Source of the DNA: a virus
Taxonomy: Duplodnaviria; Heunggongvirae; Uroviricota; Caudoviricetes
Strand: one strand, 5' to 3'
Virus record (IMG/VR): IMGVR_UViG_2548876867_000017
Coordinates: 1-35,219 of that record
Length of the DNA: 35,219 nt
Positions 1-33,507 of this stretch are shown in pieces; the first letter of the stretch is position 1, and every line of letters starts with the position of its first letter. The notes beneath the pieces were generated by a model. The model was given only the letters and a program-made list of their open reading frames with translations. It was not told where the DNA came from and searched no databases. A program made the translations under genes and the position numbers.

Positions 1-273
1 ATGAACATCGGCAAAGCAATCATCAACTACGCAGCACGTCGCAACATGGACATTACCTTGATTGGCGATGAGACCGTAGCGTTCTGGGAAGCGGATAACG
101 ATTGTGAATGGATGTTCTCCTACATGATTGGTAATGATGGTTTCCTCCACTTTAAAGGCAATGTGTATCTGCCGCAGGAGATTAAAGAAGAATTACCGGC
201 GTGCATCGATACAGACAAGAAGCTGAAAGAAGTAATCAACTTTATCGCTAAAGAGTTTATCAGCAAGAAGTAA
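1..273 (+). CDS. hypothetical protein (may be 5-prime truncated by window edge)
   Basis: ORF of 90 aa beginning at window position 1; no recognisable motif; co-oriented with downstream small genes. Confidence 0.45.
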   Translation: MNIGKAIINYAARRNMDITLIGDETVAFWEADNDCEWMFSYMIGNDGFLHFKGNVYLPQEIKEELPACIDTDKKLKEVINFIAKEFISKK

Positions 274-285
274 GGCAGCAAAACA

Positions 286-672
286 ATGTTCAATATCATG
301 ATTCGTAAATTTGGTGAGATGACTTTCGAGAAAGCTGGTGTTGCACGTACAGAAGAAGAAGCAATGGCCTTAGTTCTGGTAGCACTGAGATCATCACCTG
401 AGATTATCGACGCTGAATATGTTGCGGCTGAGGGTGAGATTAAAGAGATTAAAGCGGTGGCTAAGGAATTAGGTGTTAAAGGTTTCCGTAAGCTGAAACT
501 ATCCCGCGAGACTTATGTCATTGGACAGCAAGGACAATACCTAGATGAGAATAGCGCGATTGTCCTACTGAATAAGATCACCCGCTATGGTTTCCAGATT
601 GAGCAATATAAAACGTGTTTCGAATTATACGAAAAAGGTTTGCTGGATACTCTGACCATCGTTCGCGCTTAA
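286..672 (+). CDS. hypothetical protein
   Basis: 128 aa ORF, ATG 13 nt after upstream stop, followed by hairpin plus T-run terminator at 687-712. Confidence 0.55.
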   Translation: MFNIMIRKFGEMTFEKAGVARTEEEAMALVLVALRSSPEIIDAEYVAAEGEIKEIKAVAKELGVKGFRKLKLSRETYVIGQQGQYLDENSAIVLLNKITRYGFQIEQYKTCFELYEKGLLDTLTIVRA

Positions 673-686
673 TTAATTTCTAATTT

Positions 687-712
687 GGTGGGTGCAATTC
701 CCACCGCTTTTT
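687..712 (+). terminator. rho-independent terminator
   Basis: GGTGGG-7nt loop-CCCACC stem followed by GCTTTTT, directly after stop of 286..672. Confidence 0.6.
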
Positions 713-729
713 AAACTGGAGAATCAAAC

Positions 730-810
730 ATGTTAGCTTTTATCTCATTCGTGGGAGGTAGTCTCACAACTATGATCAGCCTTTCTTATATTGTCGTTAG
801 TATGGGGTGA
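730..810 (+). CDS. small hydrophobic peptide (26 aa), putative membrane peptide
   Basis: ATG preceded by GGAG about 9 nt upstream; translation MLAFISFVGGSLTTMISLSYIVVSMG is one hydrophobic helix; below the 60 aa cutoff of the ORF track. Confidence 0.3.
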   Translation: MLAFISFVGGSLTTMISLSYIVVSMG

Positions 811-813
811 GCA

Positions 814-939
814 ATGAAACAATTTCATGATGGCATTTCATCTAAGACATTCAAGAAAGAATATAGCGGATTGTGTATTAACTGGATTGATTTGATTGGT
901 GCGGTTGTGTTTGGTCTGGTAATCAGCATCAACTTTTAA
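814..939 (+). CDS. small membrane protein (41 aa)
   Basis: ATG preceded by GGGGTGAG; C-terminal hydrophobic segment WIDLIGAVVFGLVISINF; 3 nt after the previous small ORF. Confidence 0.35.
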   Translation: MKQFHDGISSKTFKKEYSGLCINWIDLIGAVVFGLVISINF

Positions 940-980
940 CGATATAAATATATCGTAATTCATTCAAAGAGGATTCAATT

Positions 981-1322
981 ATGAAAAAGACTATCTACGC
1001 AATTATTGTTTCTGTGTGTGTTGGTGGCATCGGTGGATTTGTTTGTGGGTATGACTATTCCGATACTCAACATCAAGAGACTATCCGGTCAAATAAGGCC
1101 GAGATTAAGGATCTGAATCAGGAGATTAGCCAGTTAGAAAATGCTCTCTCACTCAAAGATAGTGAATATAGCGAGGTTTATGCAGATAAACAAAAATATT
1201 GGAAAGAGAAAGATAATCTCGTTGTTTACGGGATGAAATTGTGTAAGAGCATGAAGGATGAGCGCAGTTGCTTAATGGAACTTGCCCTTAAAGGTAACGT
1301 GACCATCGACTTCAAAGACTAA
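981..1322 (+). CDS. membrane-anchored coiled-coil protein (signal-anchor or spanin-like architecture)
   Basis: RBS AAGAGGA upstream of ATG; N-terminal hydrophobic segment then heptad-like charged region. Confidence 0.55.
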   Translation: MKKTIYAIIVSVCVGGIGGFVCGYDYSDTQHQETIRSNKAEIKDLNQEISQLENALSLKDSEYSEVYADKQKYWKEKDNLVVYGMKLCKSMKDERSCLMELALKGNVTIDFKD

Positions 1323-1353
1323 TTAAATTCTAATAATAAGAGGAAATTCCATT

Positions 1354-1599
1354 ATGAAAAAGATTATCGCTGGTGTTGTTCTTGCTCTGGGTTTGGTTGG
1401 TGCTGCAAGTGCCGAACAATATGTACAGGGTGATAGTGTCAAGCGTGCTGCCGTTGCACCTTCTTTAAATCAACTGTGTACTGAATTAGCACAGGTTGCC
1501 GGAGTTGGTGACGATGACGACTTTATTACTGCGTGTGTATGGAGTCATATCGAGGATATTAATAAACGTGATGCAAAACTAACTGGAAAGAAATATTAA
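1354..1599 (+). CDS. small secreted protein with cleavable signal peptide
   Basis: RBS AAGAGGA; N-terminus MKKIIAGVVLALGLVGAASA-EQ fits a signal peptidase I signal; no lipobox cysteine; two Cys in mature part. Confidence 0.55.
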   Translation: MKKIIAGVVLALGLVGAASAEQYVQGDSVKRAAVAPSLNQLCTELAQVAGVGDDDDFITACVWSHIEDINKRDAKLTGKKY

Positions 1600-1615
1600 T
1601 GACTTACTAACCAAT

Positions 1616-1651
1616 GCCCCTATCGTTATAATACACGGTAGGGGCGTTTTT
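1616..1651 (+). terminator. rho-independent terminator (loop contains TATAAT-like hexamer)
   Basis: GCCCCTA..TAGGGGC stem followed by GTTTTT after the 1354..1599 stop; loop TTATAATACA could double as a -10 element for the recombinase gene. Confidence 0.5.
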
Positions 1652-1664
1652 GTTTGGAAATGGT

Positions 1665-3344
1665 ATGAAAACTAAACTGTATTCGTATATTCGCTTCTCA
1701 TCTATGCGTCAGAATGATGGTTCGAGTTATGAACGGCAAATCAGGATGGCGAGAGAGGTTGCGGCAAAGTATGACCTTGAACTGGTAAATGATTATCAGG
1801 ATCTGGGTGTATCTGCGTTTAAGGGTGCTAACTCTAAAACAGGGGCGCTATCTCGTTTCCTTGATGCAATTGGTAGATCCGTTCCTGTTGGTAGCTGGCT
1901 ATTCATTGAAAACTTGGACCGTTTATCCCGTGCCGATATTGTCAGTGCGCAGGAGTTATTCCTTTCAATAATCCGTAGGGGGATAACCATTGTTACTGGC
2001 ATGGATAACAAGATCTACTCGCTGGATACTGTTACCGCTAACCCGATGGACCTGATGTTCTCCATCCTTTTATTCATCCGTGGTAATGAGGAAAGCCAGA
2101 CTAAGCGCAATCGTACTAACTCAAGCGCACTGATTAAGATTAAAGCCCATCAAGAAAATCCCCAGAATCCGGCAGTGGCAATCGAGGAAGTTGGAAAGAA
2201 TATGTGGTGGACTGATACCACTTCCGGTTATGTGCTGCCTCATCCGGTGTACTTCCCTGTTGTTCAGGAGATTGTGGAATTGCGGAAGAATGGACGTTCA
2301 ACCGCCGAAATACTGGATCACCTTAACGAGACTTATACACCGCCACCAGCGGTTAGCAACAAGAAGCATTCAAAATGGTCACGGGCAATGGTTGAAAGGT
2401 TGTTCCATACCCGCGCTTTGATTGGTATCAAGGAAGTCTCTGTAGATGGTGTTAATTATGAGTTAAAGGATTATTACCCTCGTGTTATTGATGATGCTAC
2501 GTTCTATCACCTTAAGAAAAATATTGGTGCTAGAGCATGGAACTTTGGAGACAAGGAAGAAGTTAAACCGATCCCCCTGCTTAGTGGTATTGGCCTATTG
2601 AAATGTGATCATTGCGGTTGCGCTATGGTTAAAGTGAAGGGAACGAACAAACGTTCTGACCAGTATCGTTATACATGTGATGCGACCCGTTCACGTAGAC
2701 TTGATTGTGAGCATCCAAACTGGAGTTTTCGAGGCGACCAATTAGAGAAAGCTGTATTGCAATTGCTGGCTGATAAAATCTGGATTGCTGAGGACAAGGC
2801 TAATCCGGTTCCGGCGTTGAAAGTACAGGTTGATGAAATATCACGCAAGATTGATAACCTGATTGCCCTTTCTGCTATGACAGGAGCAACGAAGGAGTTA
2901 GCCGATCAGATTACTACCCTCAATAGCGAGCGTGAAACACTCTACAATCAGATCAAGATGGCAGAAGAGGAAATGTATTCTGTGGACTCTCAAGGCTGGG
3001 AGAAGCTCGCAGAATTTGATTTAGAAGATGTTTATAACGAGGAACGACTAAAGGTCCGGTTTAAGATTAAGCAAGCTCTAAAGCGGATCGGGTGTAGCAG
3101 GATTGACAGAAACAAAAACTTGTTTGTACTGGAATACATCGATGGAAAAACCCAGAGAGTTGTAATAGAAAATTCAAGAGGAACGAGGAAAGGCCGGATC
3201 TTCATTGATTTGAAAACTATCAATGATAGGCAGATTCTGGAGAGCAACGGGCTTGTTCTGCATCCATGTTTAGACATGCTGACAGATAAGAACTGGAAAC
3301 CAGAAGAGGAAATACCAGGTCCATTACAGGAATTTGGAATTTAA
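1665..3344 (+). CDS. large serine recombinase (integrase/resolvase family)
   Basis: N-terminal catalytic motif YSYIRFSSMRQ with conserved Ser, DRLSR motif, Cys-rich zinc-ribbon segment (CDHCGC..CDATRSRRLDCEH), C-terminal coiled coil; start moved from TTG 1650 to ATG 1665. Confidence 0.85.
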   Translation: MKTKLYSYIRFSSMRQNDGSSYERQIRMAREVAAKYDLELVNDYQDLGVSAFKGANSKTGALSRFLDAIGRSVPVGSWLFIENLDRLSRADIVSAQELFLSIIRRGITIVTGMDNKIYSLDTVTANPMDLMFSILLFIRGNEESQTKRNRTNSSALIKIKAHQENPQNPAVAIEEVGKNMWWTDTTSGYVLPHPVYFPVVQEIVELRKNGRSTAEILDHLNETYTPPPAVSNKKHSKWSRAMVERLFHTRALIGIKEVSVDGVNYELKDYYPRVIDDATFYHLKKNIGARAWNFGDKEEVKPIPLLSGIGLLKCDHCGCAMVKVKGTNKRSDQYRYTCDATRSRRLDCEHPNWSFRGDQLEKAVLQLLADKIWIAEDKANPVPALKVQVDEISRKIDNLIALSAMTGATKELADQITTLNSERETLYNQIKMAEEEMYSVDSQGWEKLAEFDLEDVYNEERLKVRFKIKQALKRIGCSRIDRNKNLFVLEYIDGKTQRVVIENSRGTRKGRIFIDLKTINDRQILESNGLVLHPCLDMLTDKNWKPEEEIPGPLQEFGI

Positions 3345-3382
3345 GCGGCCTAAATCGACGTATAACGAGCTAAAACAGTTAA

Positions 3383-3405
3383 GGGGTACATCCGTACCCC
3401 TTTTT
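3383..3405. terminator. hairpin terminator between convergent genes
   Basis: GGGGTAC-ATCC-GTACCCC perfect hairpin followed by TTTTT on plus strand, between recombinase stop and stop of 3418..4416. Confidence 0.6.
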
Positions 3406-3417
3406 AATTTAATTGTA

Positions 3418-4416
3418 TTAAAGAGCCTCTAAAGGGCTTAAATCGAGTTCTAAGTCTTCCGGTGTTAAATCAGCTAACGGTGCATTCATCCACTGCGATA
3501 AATCTCGTTCTATGTCTTCATCACTAATGTAGTTGTTCAGATTGATTGCGTTGGTATCATCAAAATACATTGGCTTAGATGGGTTGGTGTGGATGTATTC
3601 ATTGATGAATGATTTAACATCTTTCAGCTTGCTAATCGGTAGCGTTTCTGTGAATCCGCTATTCATTACCTTACGTGGGATTTTCTTGCCCTGAATATTC
3701 TTTTTAATCCCCATTTCTAAATCACCAGCTTTCCATCCAATGTTAAACAAATGTGAGCATTCAAAGGTGATTTTCTCGCTGGTGTGCTTCTGGTGTTCTC
3801 TTACCCGTTGCATCGGATCTTTGCGAGTGGTAATTCCATATTTGAAAAACTTCTCGCCAACACGAATTAGATAAAAGTGCATAGGGCGCTGTGCAAACTT
3901 GTTTCTGATAACCTGTTTTCTACCATTCTGAATTGATTTAAGTACACCCCTAACCAAAGGGCATGTTAACCCGCCTTGTCTGCGGTTATTGTGTAAATCA
4001 CCTTTCTTGTGAATCTTTCCGTGGCACTTACAACGAAGAATTAGTTTAGTGTCAACACCCTGATAAGGTTCAGCCAGACCTAACACATCCCACCCTATCG
4101 GCTTGTAGAACTTGCGAGCGTTTTCTAAGTGTTCTTCTTCGGTAAATCTAAACTTCTTCTTAGGCGGTGATACTCTATCTTTGCCAGTAAACTGACCAGT
4201 TAGAACATGACTAATACATGGCGTTTTAACCTTTCCGTTAACTTCTATGCAAACTTTGGTGTTCTGGAATGGTTTCTTTACAGGAAGCACAAAACCACTG
4301 TATAACCACCCATGCACTTGACAAACTTTAATGATTCTGGTTTCATATTCGACCGGAGGGGTCGCACGTTTGCTTTTTGCGGTAAATTCGATATCCTTTG
4401 CTAAAGTAGTATTCAT
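3418..4416 (-). CDS. putative homing endonuclease-like protein with GIY-YIG-related (T5orf172-like) motif
   Basis: Internal segment HFYLIRVGEKFFKYGITTRKDPMQRVREH resembles the T5orf172/GIY-YIG-like signature; Cys/His cluster CKCHGKIHKKGDLH; RBS GAGGA upstream. Confidence 0.45.
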   Translation of the reverse strand: MNTTLAKDIEFTAKSKRATPPVEYETRIIKVCQVHGWLYSGFVLPVKKPFQNTKVCIEVNGKVKTPCISHVLTGQFTGKDRVSPPKKKFRFTEEEHLENARKFYKPIGWDVLGLAEPYQGVDTKLILRCKCHGKIHKKGDLHNNRRQGGLTCPLVRGVLKSIQNGRKQVIRNKFAQRPMHFYLIRVGEKFFKYGITTRKDPMQRVREHQKHTSEKITFECSHLFNIGWKAGDLEMGIKKNIQGKKIPRKVMNSGFTETLPISKLKDVKSFINEYIHTNPSKPMYFDDTNAINLNNYISDEDIERDLSQWMNAPLADLTPEDLELDLSPLEAL

Positions 4417-4462
4417 AGTAGTGAATCCTCAATAAAATAATATTCACTACTATTTATAAGAA

Positions 4463-4834
4463 TTAATTATTGTAGTTTTGGAAACCAGTAAGATCACAAA
4501 ATGAATCAGTGTCATGTGCTGGGGAACGGTGTTCTGCCTCATCCGAGAAAATGTTGGCAACCGGAGATTCCACTTTAACTTCCGGTGCTTCTTCAACATC
4601 TGACTTGACTTCTTCGACCACTGGTTCAACTGCTGGAGATTCTTCTTTTGCTTCTTCAATGACGATCTCAGGTTCTTTCATTGCTTCAACCAGAGACGGA
4701 TCAACTTCGTCGAATACCACTTTATCATCTGCGGTGTATTTGTCTATAATGAAAAAATGGTCAGAAATATAGCTAACGTCGCCAGCATATTCTAACAAAA
4801 AAGCGCCCACCAGAGGCGCTTTAATTTTATCCAT
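4463..4834 (-). CDS. hypothetical acidic protein (start uncertain)
   Basis: ORF-track TTG start at 4864 overlaps the upstream gene; ATG at 4834 overlaps the upstream stop (ATGGATAA), consistent with translational coupling; C-terminal half very acidic. Confidence 0.35.
   Translation of the reverse strand: MDKIKAPLVGAFLLEYAGDVSYISDHFFIIDKYTADDKVVFDEVDPSLVEAMKEPEIVIEEAKEESPAVEPVVEEVKSDVEEAPEVKVESPVANIFSDEAEHRSPAHDTDSFCDLTGFQNYNN
4797..4820 (-). terminator. candidate intrinsic terminator or attenuator after peptidase gene
   Basis: AGCGCC-loop-GGCGCT hairpin followed on minus strand by a T-run, just downstream of the 4827 stop; lies inside the next ORF, so may attenuate rather than terminate. 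Confidence 0.35.
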
Positions 4835-17493: not shown

Positions 17494-17790
17494 TTAAAAC
17501 TCCATGAATTTAAAATATTCAATACCACCATCACCGCCGTGTCCACAGGTGACAGTACAGCCAGCAGGAACAAAGGCATTTATAGTAGATCCCCAATTAT
17601 TCCCACCACGACGACGAGCAACGGTCAAACCATCTACGTTAATCACACCATCAGCCCATCCACCGCCAGCATTATGACGCATGACAGCGACACCAGCGCG
17701 AGCAGTACCATAGCCGTTAGGAATATCAAATACATGCCATTTTAAAGCATCGATTTTAGTATTAATTTCACTACTTACCCAATATCCCAT
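17494..17790 (-). CDS. glycine-rich small protein, paralog 1
   Basis: 98 aa; VFDIPNGY motif, Gly-rich, C-terminal YFKF; RBS AAGGA. Confidence 0.55.
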   Translation of the reverse strand: MGYWVSSEINTKIDALKWHVFDIPNGYGTARAGVAVMRHNAGGGWADGVINVDGLTVARRRGGNNWGSTINAFVPAGCTVTCGHGGDGGIEYFKFMEF

Positions 17791-17828
17791 ATAAGAATCC
17801 TTAGCGGAGATTTCTCCCCGCTTTCCAA

Positions 17829-20800
17829 TTACCCTAATTTAGCTTCAATTGCAGCAAGACGTTCACGAAGAAGTTTATTTTCTTCGCTCATTTCTTGGAC
17901 CGCTTTAATTAAAAGCGCGTTCACTGCGGAGTTTGAAATTGTTAAAATTTCTTCTGGGTTATCAAGACCACCAATTTTTGCGGTTTTAACAGCTTCCGGT
18001 AATACCTCTTGTAAATCCTGTGCGATAATACCAATCTCATGACCTATAACTTCTCGGTCATTAAGAGATTTAACTTTATCGTAGGTTTTAACTTTGAGTT
18101 TATTTACCTTATCCACCGCATTTTCTTCGTAATCTTCAACATTAATTTTCAGACGACCATCGGAACGAATATAAACATCGTTAAAGTTACCATTACCAGG
18201 AGAATAGAAAGTACCATCATGATGGAACTCGAATACAGCTTGAGGATGACCAGCCGCTGGCGATGCCTCCGCAGACCCAACACGAATAATTGCTTGCCCC
18301 CAATTTTGAGGAACACGACGCATACCAAAATCGACGGCAGTTGTATACCCTTGATTGGTGATTAAACTTCTTCCTTTAATAATTGGATAATAGCTATCTG
18401 GTCCAACATAGCCATGATCGACGAATATTGGCGCTTCTAAGCCCCATTGATCACCCCAACCTCCAGATTGGCTAGCAGTCCAACGTTCACCATGAACATA
18501 GAATCGAACGTTATTGACATGGGTCATTTCGACGCCTTTTGGACTTAGCGCGATATCCCCCGCGTTTGTAATGTTTACAGCAGCATTAGTAGCATAACTA
18601 TAGAACGCTAATCCATTATCAGCACCACCTTTACCGATATACCAGTTGTTATTATCGGCACAAGTACCCAGCAAATATATAGACGAATCGCCACTTTCGG
18701 CATTCATGATGATTGCATCAGATCCGCGATTAACTTTCAGTTTACCAAAGAAGGAGTTTTTAATGGTATTATCGCCTAATCGTTCAAATTCAGCTAAAAA
18801 TCCTTTTGAGTCACGAAGACTTAAAACGTTATTTCGACCTGTATTGCTTGCCCCCCAATGGACAAGTTCCATATAGTCCATAGATTGACGAGAACCAGCT
18901 TTAAAGAAAAGGTTGTCTTCAAGACGGGTACTACCATCAATTCCCAAATGCAAACAACGAGCAGTTTCAGTGCCACCTAAATCTAATCCACCTTCGGCGA
19001 AATCATAACTGAATGGTCTACGACTATTCCACGGTCCAAAGGAATCACCGAGATCTGTGGTAAGAATATGGAAACCAACACCATCATTTCTAAAAATTAA
19101 GCCATAATTGCCACCTTTAACAGCCAAACGAGCATTTTCAGATAATGCAACTTCGCTATTCATTACGATTTTCTGGCCTTTACCGCCAGTAATATGCAAT
19201 TCACCGTTTTCGATCAAGTTTATCGAGTTTTGACCGTTGTCGTTCCACCAAATAAAATCTTTGGTTGTTCCATCACCAAAACCAAACCAACCATTACGAA
19301 CATCTTGTCCAGTGCGATAATCCATGAAATTAAAATGGCTTGATTCGTTTGGTCCTCGACGAATATCAATACCAGAATTTCCACCAACACCACCATCCAA
19401 TGTTAATTTCTTGACATGTAACCCGGATGTTACTGTCAGCAATAATTCCTGGTTTGTATCTTCGTATCCAGTAGCAAGACGATATGCGTTATCATCAACT
19501 GTCTCATGCCAGATTGTAGCTGGTGCACAACTACGGAAGCGACGCAACATCTTTTTAGCATTTGTCGGTTGTTCGTTTAAATGCTCAATATCATATTGGC
19601 CTTGATGATTGCCAGCAAAATTTAACGTCCCACGGTTGCTAAAGTTATTGAACGATGAAATGTTAAGAGCATCAAAAATTTCATCTGCAACAGGTTTTTC
19701 ACCACCCAGATATTCAGGAGTATCCAACAGGTTTAAAGAAACACCACCGGAAGAAACTTGATATTCTGCTAAAACAAATCCTGTATGTGCACCGTAGTAA
19801 GCGTAAAGATCGTAATTATCACCATCGGTAGGAATTGCACAAAAATGTTGTTCGTGATACCAGATGCTATAATAAGCATTGAATACAACACCTTTCGGGC
19901 TATTGTTGCCGCATCGAATCACCAGTTCGATAATATTGGCTTGTCCATTCTGTCCGACGTTATAACCGTTGCCACCAACTAAGCGGATCTTAGCACTACG
20001 ACCGTGTTGCTGTGGCAGTGTTAAACTACCGAGTTTAAACCAACCGCCCTCGATCCCAAAATTAAGCGTCTTCTGGAACAGTCGGTCAATTTCTGCTTTC
20101 GAATATGCGCCAATTTCAGCCGGAGTAGGTTTATCACCTTCGTGATACATGCGGTGAGAATATGACAAGTTACCCAATTCATCGTAGCCGTATGTTTTTA
20201 CAGTCGGAACAACGTTAGAACCATATGTAAAATCAAAACCGCGAGAATGATTTAGACCGCTAGGATGTGGCACATGCAAAGCTAATGCCAAATGACCATC
20301 CATATCATTAGTACGGAATGCACCAAAATAATCAAGGTTACGCGCACTTGGATCATCAAAATAGTTTGCGGTCTTAGACAGCAAATAGCCATCAGTGTAA
20401 GTGTTTACGTGCTTTTTGATGTACTTGCCATCAGCAGATCCATCGGCTGCATCAATACGGCTTTCTAAGCGTGCCAGTTCGGAATCAGTGTAAGACTTGT
20501 TATTGTCAACTTTGCTATGAATTGCTGTATTTTTGGCCTCAACATCACGGGTTAATGCTGCGACGTTATCCGCTGCCTCCTGCTTATTGGCTGCAATCAC
20601 ACCAGCAAGATGATTGTAAGTGTCGGTTAACTGATTTCCCGCATAGGTTTTATTTGCTGCGATAGTGCGGTCAGTTTCTGCCTTAATCAAATCAACCTTG
20701 TCATTAATTGCTTTGTGATTGCTTGCGATGGTTGCATCAGTACGGGATTTAATATCATCAACTTTTTTATTGATGCGGGTGTCCAGTTCCTGTGTTGCTA

Positions 20801-21239
20801 CAGCAGCCGCATTTTTATTAGCATTGATAGTATCCGACAATTCAGCTTTAACACCAGCAAGGTCGGAAGCAGCTTTATTTTTATTGGCATCGATTGTCGC
20901 GTCGGTTTCGCGTTTAATTACATCAACTTTATTGTTAATTTCTGCGTGATTTGCTGCGATAGTAGAATCAGTAGTTTGTTTAATTTCATCTACTTTAGCG
21001 TGAATATTGCGGTCATTTACTACAATTGTGCTATCCAGTTCTTTTTTATTAGCATCAACTTTAGATTCTAGTGCCGCGTGAGTTTCAGGAGAAACAGAGA
21101 TTTGAACTACTTCATGATCTCGGTCTTTGGTAAAAATAACATGGTCTTTAAGGTTGATTGCTACCTCACCGACCTGTAATTGTTCCGGCGTTGGTTTTTT
21201 GCCAGAAACATTAGTTCGTTTAAATTGGATTGATTGCAT
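17829..21239 (-). CDS. side tail fiber protein with C-terminal intramolecular chaperone (peptidase S74-like) domain
   Basis: 1136 aa; N-terminal periodic KVDxIKxxTDxTIxANK repeats; C-terminal about 110 aa (SDGRLKINVEDYEENAVDKV...LRERLAAIEAKLG) matches the auto-cleaving chaperone domain of endosialidase / T5 L-shaped fiber type; RBS GAGGTG. Confidence 0.85.
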   Translation of the reverse strand: MQSIQFKRTNVSGKKPTPEQLQVGEVAINLKDHVIFTKDRDHEVVQISVSPETHAALESKVDANKKELDSTIVVNDRNIHAKVDEIKQTTDSTIAANHAEINNKVDVIKRETDATIDANKNKAASDLAGVKAELSDTINANKNAAAVATQELDTRINKKVDDIKSRTDATIASNHKAINDKVDLIKAETDRTIAANKTYAGNQLTDTYNHLAGVIAANKQEAADNVAALTRDVEAKNTAIHSKVDNNKSYTDSELARLESRIDAADGSADGKYIKKHVNTYTDGYLLSKTANYFDDPSARNLDYFGAFRTNDMDGHLALALHVPHPSGLNHSRGFDFTYGSNVVPTVKTYGYDELGNLSYSHRMYHEGDKPTPAEIGAYSKAEIDRLFQKTLNFGIEGGWFKLGSLTLPQQHGRSAKIRLVGGNGYNVGQNGQANIIELVIRCGNNSPKGVVFNAYYSIWYHEQHFCAIPTDGDNYDLYAYYGAHTGFVLAEYQVSSGGVSLNLLDTPEYLGGEKPVADEIFDALNISSFNNFSNRGTLNFAGNHQGQYDIEHLNEQPTNAKKMLRRFRSCAPATIWHETVDDNAYRLATGYEDTNQELLLTVTSGLHVKKLTLDGGVGGNSGIDIRRGPNESSHFNFMDYRTGQDVRNGWFGFGDGTTKDFIWWNDNGQNSINLIENGELHITGGKGQKIVMNSEVALSENARLAVKGGNYGLIFRNDGVGFHILTTDLGDSFGPWNSRRPFSYDFAEGGLDLGGTETARCLHLGIDGSTRLEDNLFFKAGSRQSMDYMELVHWGASNTGRNNVLSLRDSKGFLAEFERLGDNTIKNSFFGKLKVNRGSDAIIMNAESGDSSIYLLGTCADNNNWYIGKGGADNGLAFYSYATNAAVNITNAGDIALSPKGVEMTHVNNVRFYVHGERWTASQSGGWGDQWGLEAPIFVDHGYVGPDSYYPIIKGRSLITNQGYTTAVDFGMRRVPQNWGQAIIRVGSAEASPAAGHPQAVFEFHHDGTFYSPGNGNFNDVYIRSDGRLKINVEDYEENAVDKVNKLKVKTYDKVKSLNDREVIGHEIGIIAQDLQEVLPEAVKTAKIGGLDNPEEILTISNSAVNALLIKAVQEMSEENKLLRERLAAIEAKLG
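17832..18164 (-). other. predicted self-cleaving intramolecular chaperone domain of the tail fiber
   Basis: Begins at the conserved Ser of RSDGRLK (Ser codon at 18162-18164); expected to be removed after fiber trimerisation. Confidence 0.6.
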
Positions 21240-22155: not shown

Positions 22156-22578
22156 TTAAAAACGCGCTACATAAGAAAATTTAAGGCTAAGTGTCCCAAC
22201 GATACCCCCATCACTAGAATCATCGTCATAATCGGTATTAGAAGCTACTGGAGTGATATCTGAAATAGAGAAGCCCAAATCTTTAAAACGTGGGTTATCC
22301 GGCTGAATCTGGATTATCTGGCAAATACCCTCATGAATTTTTGTTTCATGAATCTGAGAATATAATTGCATTTCGATAACGCATTCAGCTTGCATTGCAT
22401 TACCACCACGGACCCTATTGTAAGTCTCATTCATTCCGGTAATCCAACAAACCACGTCATCACTAAAGCCTTGCTGAGTTTGTTCTACGTTTAAAGCCAG
22501 ACCTAAATCTTGTTCGATAATATCCTGCAAGGCGCGTTTGATTTTCAGTCTAGGCATATTATTAACGGTAGCGAGCAT
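22156..22578 (-). CDS. hypothetical head-tail joining protein
   Basis: Start moved to ATG 22578 with RBS AGGGGG 7 nt upstream (ORF-track start 22659 overlaps upstream gene by 98 nt). Confidence 0.45.
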   Translation of the reverse strand: MLATVNNMPRLKIKRALQDIIEQDLGLALNVEQTQQGFSDDVVCWITGMNETYNRVRGGNAMQAECVIEMQLYSQIHETKIHEGICQIIQIQPDNPRFKDLGFSISDITPVASNTDYDDDSSDGGIVGTLSLKFSYVARF

Positions 22579-31947: not shown

Positions 31948-32524
31948 AGTGGTATCCTCTAAAAGAAAGTGAATCAAGTAAGTTCACTATTATTTATAAA
32001 GAGAAAATTCTTGTTATTATGAAAGGTGATTGTATTCAGTCGGGCAAAGCCCTCCTTCATGATTTGATTAAATCATCATCAAAACGAAGAAGTATCTTTA
32101 GAATATAAGAATCTTTCTTTTGGAGAAATAATAATCAGGAAGCAATTTAGCAACCGAAGGTTGCAATCCCGAAGGGATACCAATACCTTTCTAGAAAGTG
32201 ATTGTTACTCACTTCGTTCGTTTACTAGAATCAGTTAGTAACTAGTATTAAATCCCTTTCTAAGAAAATCCTTTCAAAAGCGAGTGAACGCCGTAGGCGT
32301 GAACGTGAGCGAAGCGAACTATCCAATCCCTTTCGAATCCTGCTTGCAGGTCTTAGAAGGTGTTGATGGGCGCTTCGCGCACGGCTACGCCGTATTCTTT
32401 TTGCGAGATCTTTCTTGAACGTAGTGAGAGAAAACGAGCAAAAAGGAGAACGTTAGTTCGAATTTTATATTCTATGGTCTGTGGGGTGAAATGTCTTTCA
32501 AGATCATACGCTTATGAGATTGAA

Positions 32525-32648
32525 GTGTAGGGTTAGTGTAGGTGTGTAGGTTTCATAGTGTAGGTTTGAGGGTGTTATAGTGTAGGTTTACTGACTAGTG
32601 TAGTGTAGGCCAATCCCTTTAAAGCGTAGGTTTGTAGTGTAGGTTTTT
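32525..32648. repeat. iteron-like array of about 8 copies of (A)GTGTAGGTTT
   Basis: Direct repeats at about 32525, 32536, 32544, 32558, 32580, 32603, 32626, 32637, spaced 8-23 bp, in an ORF-free region and followed by an AT-rich tract. Confidence 0.6.
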
Positions 32649-32751
32649 CATCAAAAATTTTGATAGAAAATTCTTGTATATTATTTAACCGGAAAATCAC
32701 CAAAAATCGCTGTAAATGTATGATTTAAAAAGAATTATCAAAAGGTCGCCG

Positions 32752-32760
32752 TGCTATAAT
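32752..32760 (+). promoter_or_regulatory. extended -10 promoter element (TGcTATAAT)
   Basis: TGCTATAAT at 32752-32760 in AT-rich region upstream of rightward genes; weak -35. Confidence 0.4.
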
Positions 32761-32840
32761 AGGTTATAAAGGTTGATAATCGTTATCCGCCATTTTCACA
32801 CAAAAATTTTGATAGTCATTTCTCGCTTAGGTCAAGTGCA

Positions 32841-32869
32841 TTGACAACTGTCAAGGATTATTTTATACT
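32841..32869 (+). promoter_or_regulatory. near-consensus sigma70 promoter for rightward genes
   Basis: TTGACA (32841-32846), 17 bp spacer, TATACT (32864-32869); -35 is part of palindrome TTGACA-AC-TGTCAA. Confidence 0.6.
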
Positions 32870-33211
32870 TTTTCTCATTGGTAGGGGTTGAAATTTTCGA
32901 AACAATCCCCATATTGATGATAAACAAGATTTTTTCGTGTATAAATACATGCATGAAATGATTGTTCACTTCTGAAAATCCCCTGATTCACTGTTAACAC
33001 ACACAGCACTGGTTAAACACACAGTGCTTTTTCGATTGAATAATGTACGAATTGATTAATTATTAATCTTCTCTTTAGCAATTCGTGCTCCCACTGATCA
33101 GATATACAGTGGTTTTGCAGGGTTTTCTGAAATGACTTTTATAAATAGAAGTATCGAGGGCGAAAAGCTCTTTTTATTGTCCTTATTAATCCACATTTGA
33201 GGAATCTACTT

Positions 33212-33391
33212 ATGGCTAGACCTGTTAAGTTTACTCGTGAAATGATTGTTGATATTGCTAAACGCTTTTATGGCGATACTGAACGAGGCGGCGAGAATTT
33301 CTTTAAGAAGGAAGGAATTGATAGAAGCGGATTCTATAAGCTAATGAAGAAATACGAAATTCAGATAAAGATTAACGTTCAAGTTTGTTAA
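33212..33391 (+). CDS. small HTH protein (paralog of 29817..30044)
   Basis: Start at ATG 33212 with RBS GAGGAA; ARPVKF..VDIAKRFYG..IDRSGFYKLMKKYEIQIKINVQ parallels the 29817 product. Confidence 0.5.
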   Translation: MARPVKFTREMIVDIAKRFYGDTERGGENFFKKEGIDRSGFYKLMKKYEIQIKINVQVC

Positions 33392-33433
33392 TCCACTTTC
33401 ACTGAGAATTATACGATGGCTTTAAAAATAAAA

Positions 33434-33461
33434 AGCCTCCCTTGTTGCAGCAAAGGAGGCT
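33434..33461 (-). terminator. minus-oriented intrinsic terminator inside rightward gene block
   Basis: AGCCTCC..GGAGGCT hairpin preceded on plus strand by an A-run (U-run on minus transcript); no T-run on plus side. Confidence 0.4.
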
Positions 33462-33507
33462 TGAAATGAACAATTAAAACTAACACAGCATTCAGGAGTA
33501 TTTATAA

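Follow-up and report, generated by a model that had tools for sequence, protein, structure and literature searches.

In the window, by which we mean the whole stretch of DNA that was analysed (35,219 nucleotides), the left end carries a gene for a large serine recombinase (LSR) of the integrase type, which is very probably the element's own integrase. Most of a ~37-kb siphovirus-like prophage is contained in the window, and this prophage belongs to an undescribed family of temperate E. coli phages. In our best explanation, to which we assign a probability of roughly 0.85, the LSR is the integrase of this temperate phage and inserts it at a site in ycdX, its specificity lies in its DNA-binding domains, partly exchangeable cargo separates attP from int, and a putative promoter spans the attP crossover. 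The attB, the attP, and the integrase are now defined for a widespread E. coli phage family, and nothing in the integrase and prophage results overturns current understanding.

The genes between attP and int form a rightward string, in which a terminator follows ORF1 and ORF2, a second follows the four small genes, and a third follows int. The features of the left end, in window coordinates, are:

1 to 273, plus strand: ORF1 (90 aa), the first gene inside the left end of the prophage, variable cargo.
286 to 672, plus strand: ORF2 (128 aa), cytoplasmic.
686 to 706, plus strand: terminator-like hairpin with T-run after ORF2 (-11.4 kcal/mol, z -2.9).
730 to 810, plus strand: ORF for a 26-aa hydrophobic peptide, with a GGAG ribosome-binding site.
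814 to 939, plus strand: 41-aa ORF with a C-terminal transmembrane segment.
981 to 1322, plus strand: 113-aa signal-anchored coiled-coil protein.
1354 to 1599, plus strand: 81-aa secreted protein, signal peptide 1-20 ending ASA/EQ (the slash marks the cleavage point).
1613 to 1648, plus strand: strong intrinsic-terminator hairpin, 14-bp stem and T-run (-23.4 kcal/mol, z -4.2).
1665 to 3344, plus strand: LSR (559 aa), taken as the prophage integrase.
3381 to 3402, both strands: bidirectional terminator (-14.5 and -15.0 kcal/mol on the two strands).

All of the ORFs from which the sequence-only reading started are present (730-810, 814-939, 981-1322, 1354-1599, and a long ORF at 1650-3344). Its description of a serine recombinase with zinc ribbon and coiled coil also holds, but the length of 560 aa probably does not; the ATG at 1665 is the most likely true start, because RefSeq and all homologues use it, and the protein most likely has 559 aa. 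Pfam detects the Resolvase domain (PF00239; E 9.5e-15, 55.4 bits against a cut-off of 23.3), as well as Recombinase (PF07508; E 3.8e-09, 37.2 bits) and Zn_ribbon_recom (PF13408; E 2.4e-10, 41.1 bits), both above their curated cut-offs. Among 24 diverse homologues, the catalytic residues R10, Q16, D85, R86, and R89 and the zinc-ribbon cysteines C314, C317, C338, and C348 are invariant, and S12 is conserved in at least 90%. A single-sequence search of the PDB for a homologue of solved structure gave no match; in a profile search of the PDB, residues ~369-459 match designed and natural coiled coils (E 2e-7 to 8e-3). The rough domain limits are ~1-140 for the catalytic domain, ~175-300 for the recombinase domain, ~305-360 for the zinc ribbon, and ~365-460 for the coiled coil, with a C-terminal extension up to residue 559.

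When bacterial genomes were searched for the segment as an integrated prophage with attL and attR, copies were found. The prophage region occurs in 57-60 of 5426 complete E. coli genomes (about 1%), always in the chromosome, and these copies, bounded by attL and attR, bear out the assignment of the recombinase to the integrase type. The family also occurs in Shigella, Salmonella, and E. fergusonii. An integrase had been thought to sit uneasily beside a streamlined virion and lysis module, but there is no such tension, as the remainder of the window is the genome of a temperate phage. Searches of INPHARED by megablast, blastn, and tblastn returned no close relative and no virion isolate of the family; the matches were limited to short mosaic stretches of T4-like genes and to a capsid protein at 45% identity. 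Rfam gave no hit at or above a family's gathering score across the window, and literature searches found no paper that ties ycdX, hicB, or codB to a serine-integrase prophage.

The attachment sites were read from the strain UTME-9, in which the element sits between the two halves of ycdX. Alignment with the intact, empty ycdX of K-12, which equals the joined flanks of the insertion, gives the exact junctions. FXCREC043 and KSC64 share this junction, as does FDAARGOS_1267, where it lies in a ycdX allele that is 91% identical to that of K-12 and has diverged beside the junction. The K-12 attB and the deduced attP coincide in a block of exactly two bases, TT, and the best dyad axis of attP (14 of 22 positions) falls on this core. 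A shared 2-bp core on a dyad axis is a signature of LSRs. The deduced attP reads ...GGGTTGACTACATTCGGG-TT-GCCAAATATCATGTACCCAC..., and the attB in ycdX reads ...CATATTTGGGA-TT-TCCGGGATGGC...; the latter lies at about nt 400 of 738, in a motif coding for HPGNPKY. Because the window has no flanks, its own target is taken to be ycdX from the UTME-9 enzyme, which is 99.8% identical to the LSR of the window. The LSR would recombine attP with the ycdX attB, with exchange at the 2-bp TT.

The window does not include the crossover, which maps 42 bp to the left of position 1 and ~1.7 kb upstream of int. An attP had instead been suggested for one of the two hairpin-containing intergenic regions beside the recombinase gene (1600-1664 or 3345-3417). 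Hairpins are indeed present in both (1613-1648 and 3381-3402), but their anatomy is that of intrinsic terminators and the real junctions are elsewhere, so neither region can be attP. The joined attP sequence had no exact match in IMG/VR, in JGI metagenome contigs, or among GTDB representatives (one genome per species). Little weight attaches to this negative result, since the relatives in IMG/VR are prophage calls that were cut back to gene starts. Excision and activity of the prophage are inferred, as neither a joined-attP molecule nor a virion isolate was found.

Between attP and int lie both conserved and exchangeable genes. ORF1 matches phrog_6147 (no function assigned; E 4.8e-33) and is absent from loci L005, L006, L008, and L009. 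ORF2 matches phrog_14908 (no function assigned; E 9.4e-19), is present in 8/8 aligned copies and annotated in most others checked, and is conceivably a candidate for a recombination directionality factor (RDF), which is pure inference. The block from 282 to 995 is 91-98% identical in 7/7 loci compared. Within it, the 26-aa and 41-aa ORFs are both intact in 8/8 loci, and the changes among these eight copies are mostly at third codon positions or conservative: in the 26-aa ORF, four of the five variable sites are at codon position 3 and the amino-acid changes are M/I and I/L, and the 41-aa ORF has an in-frame 3-nt indel in L007. PGAP annotates the 41-aa ORF in one genome, FDAARGOS_1267 (WP_274540528.1). 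The 113-aa gene forms a cassette (window ~996-1325) that L001, L004, and L014 carry and that L005-L009 and L016 lack; copies of a 31-bp repeat flank it (965-995 and ~1335-1365). Behind the signal peptide of the 81-aa protein, an unrelated 117-aa domain replaces the mature domain in some relatives.

A hydrophobicity scan upholds the claim that the four small genes upstream of int all encode membrane or signal segments, as a single 17-residue segment of strong hydrophobicity (Kyte-Doolittle 1.7-2.35) is present in each product. Nearly the whole 26-aa peptide is hydrophobic (best segment 1.72), and the 41-aa product has a hydrophobic C-terminus (2.18). For the 113-aa protein, which has a conserved C-terminal cysteine pair (C88/C97), the AF2 model predicts an N-terminal anchor and a helix at 28-89 (pLDDT 66.7); for the mature part of the 81-aa protein, AF2 predicts a helical hairpin with C42 and C61. 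The 113-aa protein is an ORFan restricted to this prophage family, and a search of 5.8 billion proteins found homologues of it and of the 81-aa protein only within the family. Searches of the small proteins against Pfam, PHROGs, NCBIfam, and PADLOC gave no match at a curated cut-off or with a convincing E-value; weak matches of the 113-aa protein (Rz-like spanin, E 0.0024; DUF7491; DRT-associated) are attributable to its coiled coil. Foldseek found no match with E <1 to the AF2 models of the 81- and 113-aa proteins (pLDDT 67-68) in the PDB or BFVD, and neither family nor fold searches revealed homology of the small proteins to known exclusion proteins. A spanin pair of the 113- and 81-aa proteins was considered and rejected, as a lipobox is missing from the 81-aa protein and most relatives do not carry the 113-aa gene.

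The four small genes had been read as moron cargo of the integrase. This stands in part: the 113-aa cassette and the 81-aa mature domain vary, as does ORF1, and these three are exchangeable accessory genes, putatively directed at the envelope. The 26-aa and 41-aa ORFs, together with ORF2, are not morons, because they are conserved in all eight aligned copies.

The transcription signals bear on the same question. The hairpin at 686-706 is conserved in all loci compared. The hairpin at 1613-1648 ends 17 nt before the int ATG and holds a TATAAT in its loop (1627-1632); the conserved int block begins at ~1616, even where the upstream cargo differs. The terminator at 3381-3402 separates int from a convergent 332-aa endonuclease-like ORF (3418-4416, minus strand). 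A consensus scan found no sigma-70-like promoter of at least 9/12 upstream of the small genes, bar a weak one inside the 26-aa ORF, and no sigma-70 match of at least 10/12 on the plus strand of window positions 1-4000. The expression of the small genes from the prophage that a moron layout implies was thus not borne out, as the consensus scan placed no sigma-70-like promoter in front of them; from the pairing of own promoter and terminator that characterizes morons, the terminators were found (686-706 and 1613-1648) and the promoter was not.

A putative promoter close to the sigma-70 consensus, TTGACT-17 nt-TATCAT, straddles the crossover of attP a short way ahead of ORF1. With 10/12 consensus positions and a 17-nt spacer, it is present in all three attP types, a conservation that is not fully separable from that of recombinase binding. 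Both hexamers lie in the non-symmetric parts of attP, as read directly from the sequence, and sigma-70 matches of this quality have a density of 0.057 per kb on each strand of the window. The attL sites reach at most 8/12 of the promoter consensus, and attR has no such promoter. Because the promoter spans the crossover, it would be intact only in unintegrated DNA and would be split by integration. Transcription of the gene string as far as int would in that case take place chiefly once the phage has infected a cell or has excised, and the two terminators between the attP promoter and int would weaken it. With the crossover inside the spacer of the int/cargo promoter, integration may dismantle its own promoter, which may constitute a self-limiting, state-sensing circuit. 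We know of no description of such a circuit for serine-integrase phages; if true, the split promoter would be a simple way for a phage to sense its integration state. A GC-rich terminator-like hairpin with a T-run, read by eye, precedes the -35 hexamer at attP.

Among the alternatives, the one with the most in its favor, to which we give somewhat less than an even chance, holds that the small ORFs serve early or late phage functions at the envelope while infection or induction is under way, or that the mini-ORFs encode toxic membrane peptides, rather than exclusion or receptor-masking morons. It would account for the terminator upstream of the small genes and the missing promoter in front of them, for a sole good promoter that is intact only in unintegrated DNA, and for the 26- and 41-aa ORFs, whose conservation in 8/8 aligned copies marks them as non-accessory. 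It fits less well with the 113-aa gene and the 81-aa mature domain, which are dispensable or swappable in the pattern of accessory conflict genes, and the spanin-like match of the 113-aa protein comes without a lipoprotein partner in a gene absent from most relatives.

Sister prophages insert into hicB or codB, and the comparison of their enzymes points to the determinants of target choice. Twenty-six alignment columns separate the ycdX set of LSRs from the hicB set; 23 of these lie in aa 196-353, none in the catalytic domain, and none in the coiled coil, which is nearly invariant between the two types. The N-terminal domain is mosaic among relatives and is not related to target. The attP is essentially unchanged between target classes, with ycdX-type and hicB-type sites being indistinguishable. 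Across the 4 ycdX and 8 hicB loci with readable junctions, the association of target and enzyme type is perfect, and 3 further hicB junctions from IMG/VR agree with it. Given this correlation, the recombinase and zinc-ribbon domains would set target choice.

It could be argued that the ycdX-type and hicB-type enzymes are equal in specificity and use primary and secondary sites, with the association reflecting lineage history. The indistinguishable attP sites would suit this, as would the resemblance of the ycdX and hicB attB sites, which have 21/46 positions and an inner ATTnGG-type motif in common. We nevertheless regard it as improbable, as the association is without exception, holds despite mosaic N-terminal domains and shuffled cargo, and involves separating residues confined to the DNA-binding domains; in addition, two lysogens hold two family members at once, a ycdX-type and a hicB-type, each at its own site.

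A joint reading can be put forward tentatively, and we consider it possible rather than probable: the family represents a natural retargeting series of one serine integrase, combined with an attP crossover inside the int/cargo promoter spacer. In this series, enzymes 87-93% identical may use one attP with an attB in either ycdX or hicB, joined by a codB enzyme at ~74% identity, and the attB switch may be carried by ~23 substitutions limited to the recombinase and zinc-ribbon domains. Studies of how such enzymes read attB, and attempts to retarget them, could make direct use of this set, in which near-identical proteins serve three natural chromosomal targets, attP stays the same, and the candidate specificity residues are few. 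To our knowledge, few serine integrases native to E. coli have been characterized. Insertion in ycdX, in the antitoxin gene hicB, or in codB may also alter the phenotype of the host.

Also improbable, slightly more so than equal specificity of the two enzyme types, is that the element is a decaying or domesticated prophage, with the LSR and cargo as relics and a mostly vertical spread in E. coli. Such decay would agree with the lack of an isolate or an attP-bearing circle and with the IS1, IS3, or ISVsa5 insertions, split endonuclease ORF, or truncated int of some copies. In opposition, int is full length in 54/57 E. coli genomes with catalytic residues intact, the packaging, head, tail, and lysis modules are complete, three targets are in use, and the double lysogens each carry two family members. 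The sources of the carriers are pigs, humans, chickens, a cat, and a frog, spread over several continents, and the exchange of cargo and mosaic N-terminal domains implies ongoing recombination among active phages.

Very improbable is that the LSR acts as a resolvase, an invertase, or in an accessory role, as may be the case for YbcK-type proteins, and that some other, unrecognised enzyme integrates the element: although, among phage proteins, those most similar to it are YbcK-like ones from lambdoid phages (~32% identity) and attP is 1.7 kb from its gene rather than adjacent, the annotations of the three full prophage copies that were inspected list no second integrase or recombinase, the junctions show the 2-bp core and dyad symmetry of LSR sites, and substitutions in its DNA-binding domains track the target in every locus with a readable junction.

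As an integrase, the LSR resembles phiC31 Int, Bxb1 gp35, TP901-1 Int, A118/LI Int, and SPbeta SprA in its order of catalytic domain, recombinase domain, and zinc ribbon with inserted coiled coil, and a profile search of the PDB finds the phiC31 and TP901-1 integrases. Prophage integration at short att sites with an imperfect dyad and a 2-bp non-palindromic crossover is likewise shared with phage serine integrases. It differs from them in being very distant in sequence (profile E only 9e-11 over the catalytic domain), in having an extra ~100-aa C-terminal extension, in its gamma-proteobacterial host, and in an attP that lies 1.7 kb from int with six ORFs between them and no identified RDF. In sequenced phages, the closest proteins are the YbcK-type recombinases of lambdoid phages and the DLP12 prophage, which have the same three domains at 31-32% identity over 82% of the protein. 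Lambdoid phages bearing YbcK also carry a tyrosine Int, and we know of no integrase role shown for YbcK; unlike YbcK, the LSR is the sole annotated recombinase of its element, and the att sites fit it.

Morons and superinfection-exclusion genes beside integrases include HK97 gp15, P22 SieA, T5 Llp, and phage Cor. Like these, the genes described here lie at the end of a prophage, encode small proteins of the membrane or periplasm, and differ between close relatives by presence or absence and by allelic replacement. They are unlike them in having no sequence or fold relationship to these proteins and no detected promoter of their own; moreover, conservation sets two of the four small ORFs apart from accessory genes.

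The interruption of ycdX recalls the prophages of active lysogeny (SPbeta in spsM via SprA/SprB; Listeria phi10403S in comK), as a serine-integrase prophage splits a host gene at a conserved motif and precise excision would restore ycdX. SPbeta is an intragenic serine-integrase prophage in spsM (PMC5499854). In contrast to SPbeta, no SprB-like RDF was identified beside int, and excision here is not known to be coupled to host physiology. The attP promoter finds its nearest parallel in ICEKp1, ICEclc, and ICEEc1: once excised, these elements transcribe int from a promoter located at their opposite end, across the junction of the joined ends, and a stem-loop that resembles a terminator in the 5' region of int damps transcription (PMC13023037). 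Here too, to judge from sequence alone, the joint of attP lies within a predicted promoter, and there is a terminator ahead of int. Whereas those elements have tyrosine integrases and, when integrated, a host tRNA promoter, the present element is a phage with an LSR, and the promoter itself would be cut at the crossover.

The window encodes, at its left end on the plus strand, a predicted large serine recombinase (LSR; gene int). Every ORF named by the sequence-only reading was recovered on the plus strand, and two others, ORF1 and ORF2, precede them.

Features at the left end of the window
1-273, plus strand: ORF1, 90 aa
286-672, plus strand: ORF2, 128 aa
686-706: third terminator-like hairpin, after ORF2
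730-810, plus strand: 26-aa ORF
814-939, plus strand: 41-aa ORF
981-1322, plus strand: 113-aa ORF
1354-1599, plus strand: 81-aa ORF
1613-1648: hairpin, 14-bp stem followed by TTTTTGTTT (-23.4 kcal/mol, z -4.2), ending 17 nt before the int ATG
1650 (TTG, mechanical ORF list) to 3344, plus strand: long ORF, the LSR
3381-3402: hairpin, GC-rich stem of 9 bp with a T-run on each strand, located where int and the endonuclease-like gene converge

RefSeq annotation of near-identical copies and all homologues place the LSR start at ATG 1665, giving 559 aa. The protein contains the Resolvase, Recombinase, and Zn_ribbon_recom domains, each above the curated Pfam cut-off, and is assigned to phrog_95, an 'integrase' family (PHROGs, E 1e-63). 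In an alignment of 24 homologues with identities down to 28%, residues R10, Q16, D85, R86, and R89 and the four zinc-ribbon cysteines are invariant, while the serine nucleophile S12 is almost invariant. A profile built from this alignment retrieves the phiC31 and TP901-1 integrases from PDB, with residues ~369-459 matching coiled coils; the single sequence finds no match there. Because of the Pfam domains, the conserved residues, and the profile matches, together with the empty single-sequence search, the LSR is judged at the sequence level to be an intact but divergent large serine recombinase. It presents every sequence-level hallmark of that family, and its catalysis and directionality are predicted. 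The LSR is distant from every characterised serine integrase, and its nearest relatives among sequenced phages are the YbcK-like proteins of lambdoid phages (~32% identity). Homologues are common in Escherichia, Shigella, Salmonella, E. fergusonii, and Edwardsiella, and in every source they are labelled 'recombinase family protein' and nothing more.

In E. coli UTME-9, an element of ~37.2 kb whose LSR is 99.8% identical to that of the window separates the C-terminal from the N-terminal half of ycdX. Alignment of both junctions with the intact ycdX of K-12 yielded the attachment sites.

Attachment sites of the ycdX-type prophage
attB (K-12 ycdX): ...CATATTTGGGA-TT-TCCGGGATGG...
attL (UTME-9): ...TTTGGGA-TT-GCCAAATATCATGTACCCAC...
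attR (UTME-9): ...GACTACATTCGGG-TT-TCCGGGATGG...
attP (deduced, 50 bp): TTTTGGGTTGACTACATTCGGGTTGCCAAATATCATGTACCCACAATAAC

At the exchange point, TT are the sole bases common to attB and the deduced attP, and attP has its best dyad axis precisely there, with 14 of 22 mirrored positions matching. Serine integrases characteristically use short, imperfectly symmetric sites with a 2-bp non-palindromic core. The sites that the predicted integrase would recombine thus show the anatomy of the large serine recombinase family, and the earlier call of an integrase-type serine recombinase is borne out. The same ycdX junction occurs in FXCREC043 and KSC64; in FDAARGOS_1267 it falls in a ycdX allele with 91% identity to K-12 that has diverged beside the junction. 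The crossover is located 42 bp to the left of window position 1, which is the ATG of the first prophage gene, as in other IMG/VR prophage calls of the family. Therefore, no att half-site lies inside the window, from which ~2.2 kb of the right end of the prophage is also missing. The sequence-only reading had placed attP in the hairpin-containing intergenic regions 1600-1664 or 3345-3417, and this placement is wrong: the hairpins at 1613-1648 and 3381-3402 are both terminators, and the real junctions lie elsewhere.

Elsewhere, the window encodes the terminase, portal, fused protease-capsid protein, major tail protein, tape measure, J-like tip protein, long side fibre, M15 endolysin, and an Ant/Rha-type regulator. 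Nucleotide searches of INPHARED found no close relative among sequenced phages, only short T4-like patches, and the best capsid match there is 45% identical. Of 5426 complete E. coli genomes, 60 carry window positions 1-4480 at 91-98% identity, in every case on the chromosome, and 57 of these 60 have the LSR gene. Integrated copies with attL and attR, the check that the earlier reading had proposed, were thus found in complete genomes such as UTME-9. The annotations of the full copies in UTME-9, DEC5A, and KSC64 include no tyrosine integrase, no transposase-like integrase, and no second serine recombinase. Decay is clear in some copies through IS insertions or a truncated int. The int region is matched at two places each in UTME-9 (NZ_CP157110.1), where one copy lies in ycdX, and in BS74R-D (NZ_CP063332.1), where one copy lies in hicB and the second has a ycdX-class int (97.8% identity). 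Since joined attP DNA was not found in IMG/VR, JGI metagenome contigs, or GTDB representative genomes and no isolate of the phage exists, we infer excision and infectivity from the intact genes, the three targets, the double lysogens, and the mosaic exchange between copies. No recombination directionality factor was identified; the conserved ORF2, encoded upstream of int in the same orientation, is a lead for this role and no more.

Sister prophages with the gene order of the window occupy two other targets, namely hicB in BS74R-D, DEC5A, PE15, ETEC1738, C325, and three IMG/VR contigs, and codB in 39EVA and 06-00048. All three insertions interrupt coding sequence, at ~nt 400 of 738 in ycdX, ~nt 300 of 417 in hicB, and ~nt 360 of 1260 in codB. 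Relative to the LSR of the window, the hicB-type enzymes are 87-93% identical and the codB-type enzymes ~74%. In an alignment of 11 sequences, 26 columns divide the ycdX from the hicB enzymes; 23 lie in residues 196-353, which comprise the recombinase domain and zinc ribbon, three lie in residues 484-509, and both the coiled coil and the catalytic domain are free of them. Two versions of the catalytic domain occur, shuffled without regard to target. Between the ycdX and hicB types, the attP arms cannot be told apart: the P arm is identical in UTME-9 and DEC5A, and the P' arm variants are common to both classes. The ycdX and hicB attB sites share 21 of 46 positions. Enzyme class and site are perfectly associated in all loci with a readable junction. 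This pattern suggests that substitutions in the recombinase and zinc-ribbon domains cause the change of target. Literature searches returned no paper linking ycdX, hicB, or codB with a serine-integrase prophage. One point of interest in this family is that it offers a natural series of near-identical integrases with differing attB and an unchanged attP. In hicB-type loci such as DEC5A, the hicA toxin gene and the N-terminal part of hicB remain intact beside attR, and interruption of the antitoxin gene hicB might alter toxin-antitoxin regulation.

The region between attP and int is partly conserved and partly exchanged. Seven loci match the window at 91-98% identity over the block 282-995, which spans ORF2 with its terminator and both mini-ORFs (26 and 41 aa), while ORF1 is absent from four loci. 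Both mini-ORFs are intact in 8 of 8 copies, each is preceded by a ribosome-binding site, and the 41-aa ORF is annotated by PGAP in one genome. Their variable sites, small in number, are largely third codon positions or M/I, I/L, and V/I changes, and one copy bears an in-frame 3-nt deletion, a pattern indicative of coding sequence. The gene for the 113-aa protein forms an insertion/deletion cassette between 31-bp repeats, which consist of ribosome-binding-site and start regions resembling one another; some copies of the ycdX type and of the hicB type carry this gene, and other copies lack it. The 81-aa gene retains its signal peptide in DEC5A, PE15, and 06-00048, where an unrelated 117-aa domain substitutes for the mature part, and in FDAARGOS_1267 a 348-aa protein with CapR and T5orf172-like domains takes the place of both genes. 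Hydropathy supports a single membrane or signal segment for every one of the four small products and shows none for either ORF1 or ORF2. The first reading was correct in the membrane or secreted character that it gave the LSR neighbours. The 113- and 81-aa proteins each contain a conserved cysteine pair, a pattern compatible with export to the periplasm; they have no homologues beyond this prophage family and no family or fold match. A role of the small genes in superinfection exclusion or receptor masking, as originally claimed, exceeds this evidence; it is a fair guess based on location and polymorphism, and we regard it as somewhat less likely than not.

The interval 3418-4826, from int to the endolysin gene, is a second variable cargo slot, holding a 332-aa endonuclease-like ORF and an inh-like ORF in the window, GIY-YIG or NUMOD3 nucleases or IS1 in some relatives, and a CapR-domain protein with a UvsW-like DEAD-box helicase in others. 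Positions 4480-4737, which match the inh prohead-protease-inhibitor gene, and ~17500-20400, which match the distal long-tail-fibre region inside the 1136-aa fibre ORF (17829-21239), are 80-96% identical in DNA sequence to virulent T4-like phages (Krischvirus, Tequatrovirus, and relatives). Together with a UvsW-like helicase in the KSC64 sister copy, these similarities suggest that genes have moved between T-even phages and a temperate siphophage. The final gene ahead of attR in UTME-9 (13807-14586 of L002, the right end of that prophage, outside the window) encodes a 259-aa protein matching Pfam LprI (E 1.2e-05), a lysozyme-inhibitor family; if exported as other members of the family are, it would place envelope-directed cargo at both prophage ends. 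Within 31978-33507, 1.5 kb without an ORF of at least 70 aa and likewise unannotated in RefSeq copies, five to six iteron-like copies of TAGTGTAGGTTT with 11/22-nt spacing, especially at 32534-32646, could be a replication origin or operator array. A 91-nt tRNA-Lys(ttt) called by ARAGORN at 22301-22391 (plus strand) amid minus-strand ORFs, where Rfam gives nothing at gathering score, is probably spurious.

Conservation of the int block begins at ~1616, also in relatives with other upstream cargo; therefore, the hairpin at 1613-1648 is part of the int module. Its loop contains a perfect TATAAT (1627-1632) with a -35 hexamer of only 3/6, which could be a weak int promoter starting inside the hairpin 3' arm. 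On the plus strand of window positions 1-4000, no sigma-70-like site reaches at least 10/12 consensus positions, and the sole 9/12 site is internal to the 26-aa ORF. In the deduced attP, the sequence TTGACT-ACATTCGGG-TT-GCCAAA-TATCAT is a 10/12 match with a 17-nt spacer within which the crossover falls. A spacer of 17 nt is optimal. The -10 hexamer is 30 nt upstream of the ORF1 ATG and is followed by a GAGGGGG ribosome-binding site, and a terminator-like GC-rich hairpin with a T-run, noted by eye with no tool score, lies just 5' of the -35 hexamer. This geometry is kept in the hicB-type attP, some copies of which have a perfect TATAAT as the -10, and in the much more divergent codB-type attP (TTGACC-17-TATCAT), while attL sites reach at most 8/12 and attR has no match. 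Across the window, the frequency of equally good matches is 0.057 per kb per strand, which gives a probability of roughly 0.003 for one in the ~60 bp before ORF1.

From the attP match, its kept geometry, and the weaker attL and attR, it is proposed that the ORF1-to-int string would be driven by a promoter present only in unintegrated DNA, that integration would dismantle it, and that two terminators would restrict transcription reaching int. Conservation of the hexamers is not fully separable from conservation for recombinase binding; as read from the sequence, they occupy non-symmetric stretches of attP (-15 to -10 and +7 to +12), and only two to three of six mirror positions match. The model also gives no account of int expression for excision. 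We assign this possible split promoter, the further point of interest in the element, a probability of about 0.4. Among described systems, the state-dependent switching of int promoters in ICEKp1, ICEclc, and ICEEc1 comes closest to it; there, too, a terminator-like stem-loop precedes int (PMC13023037).
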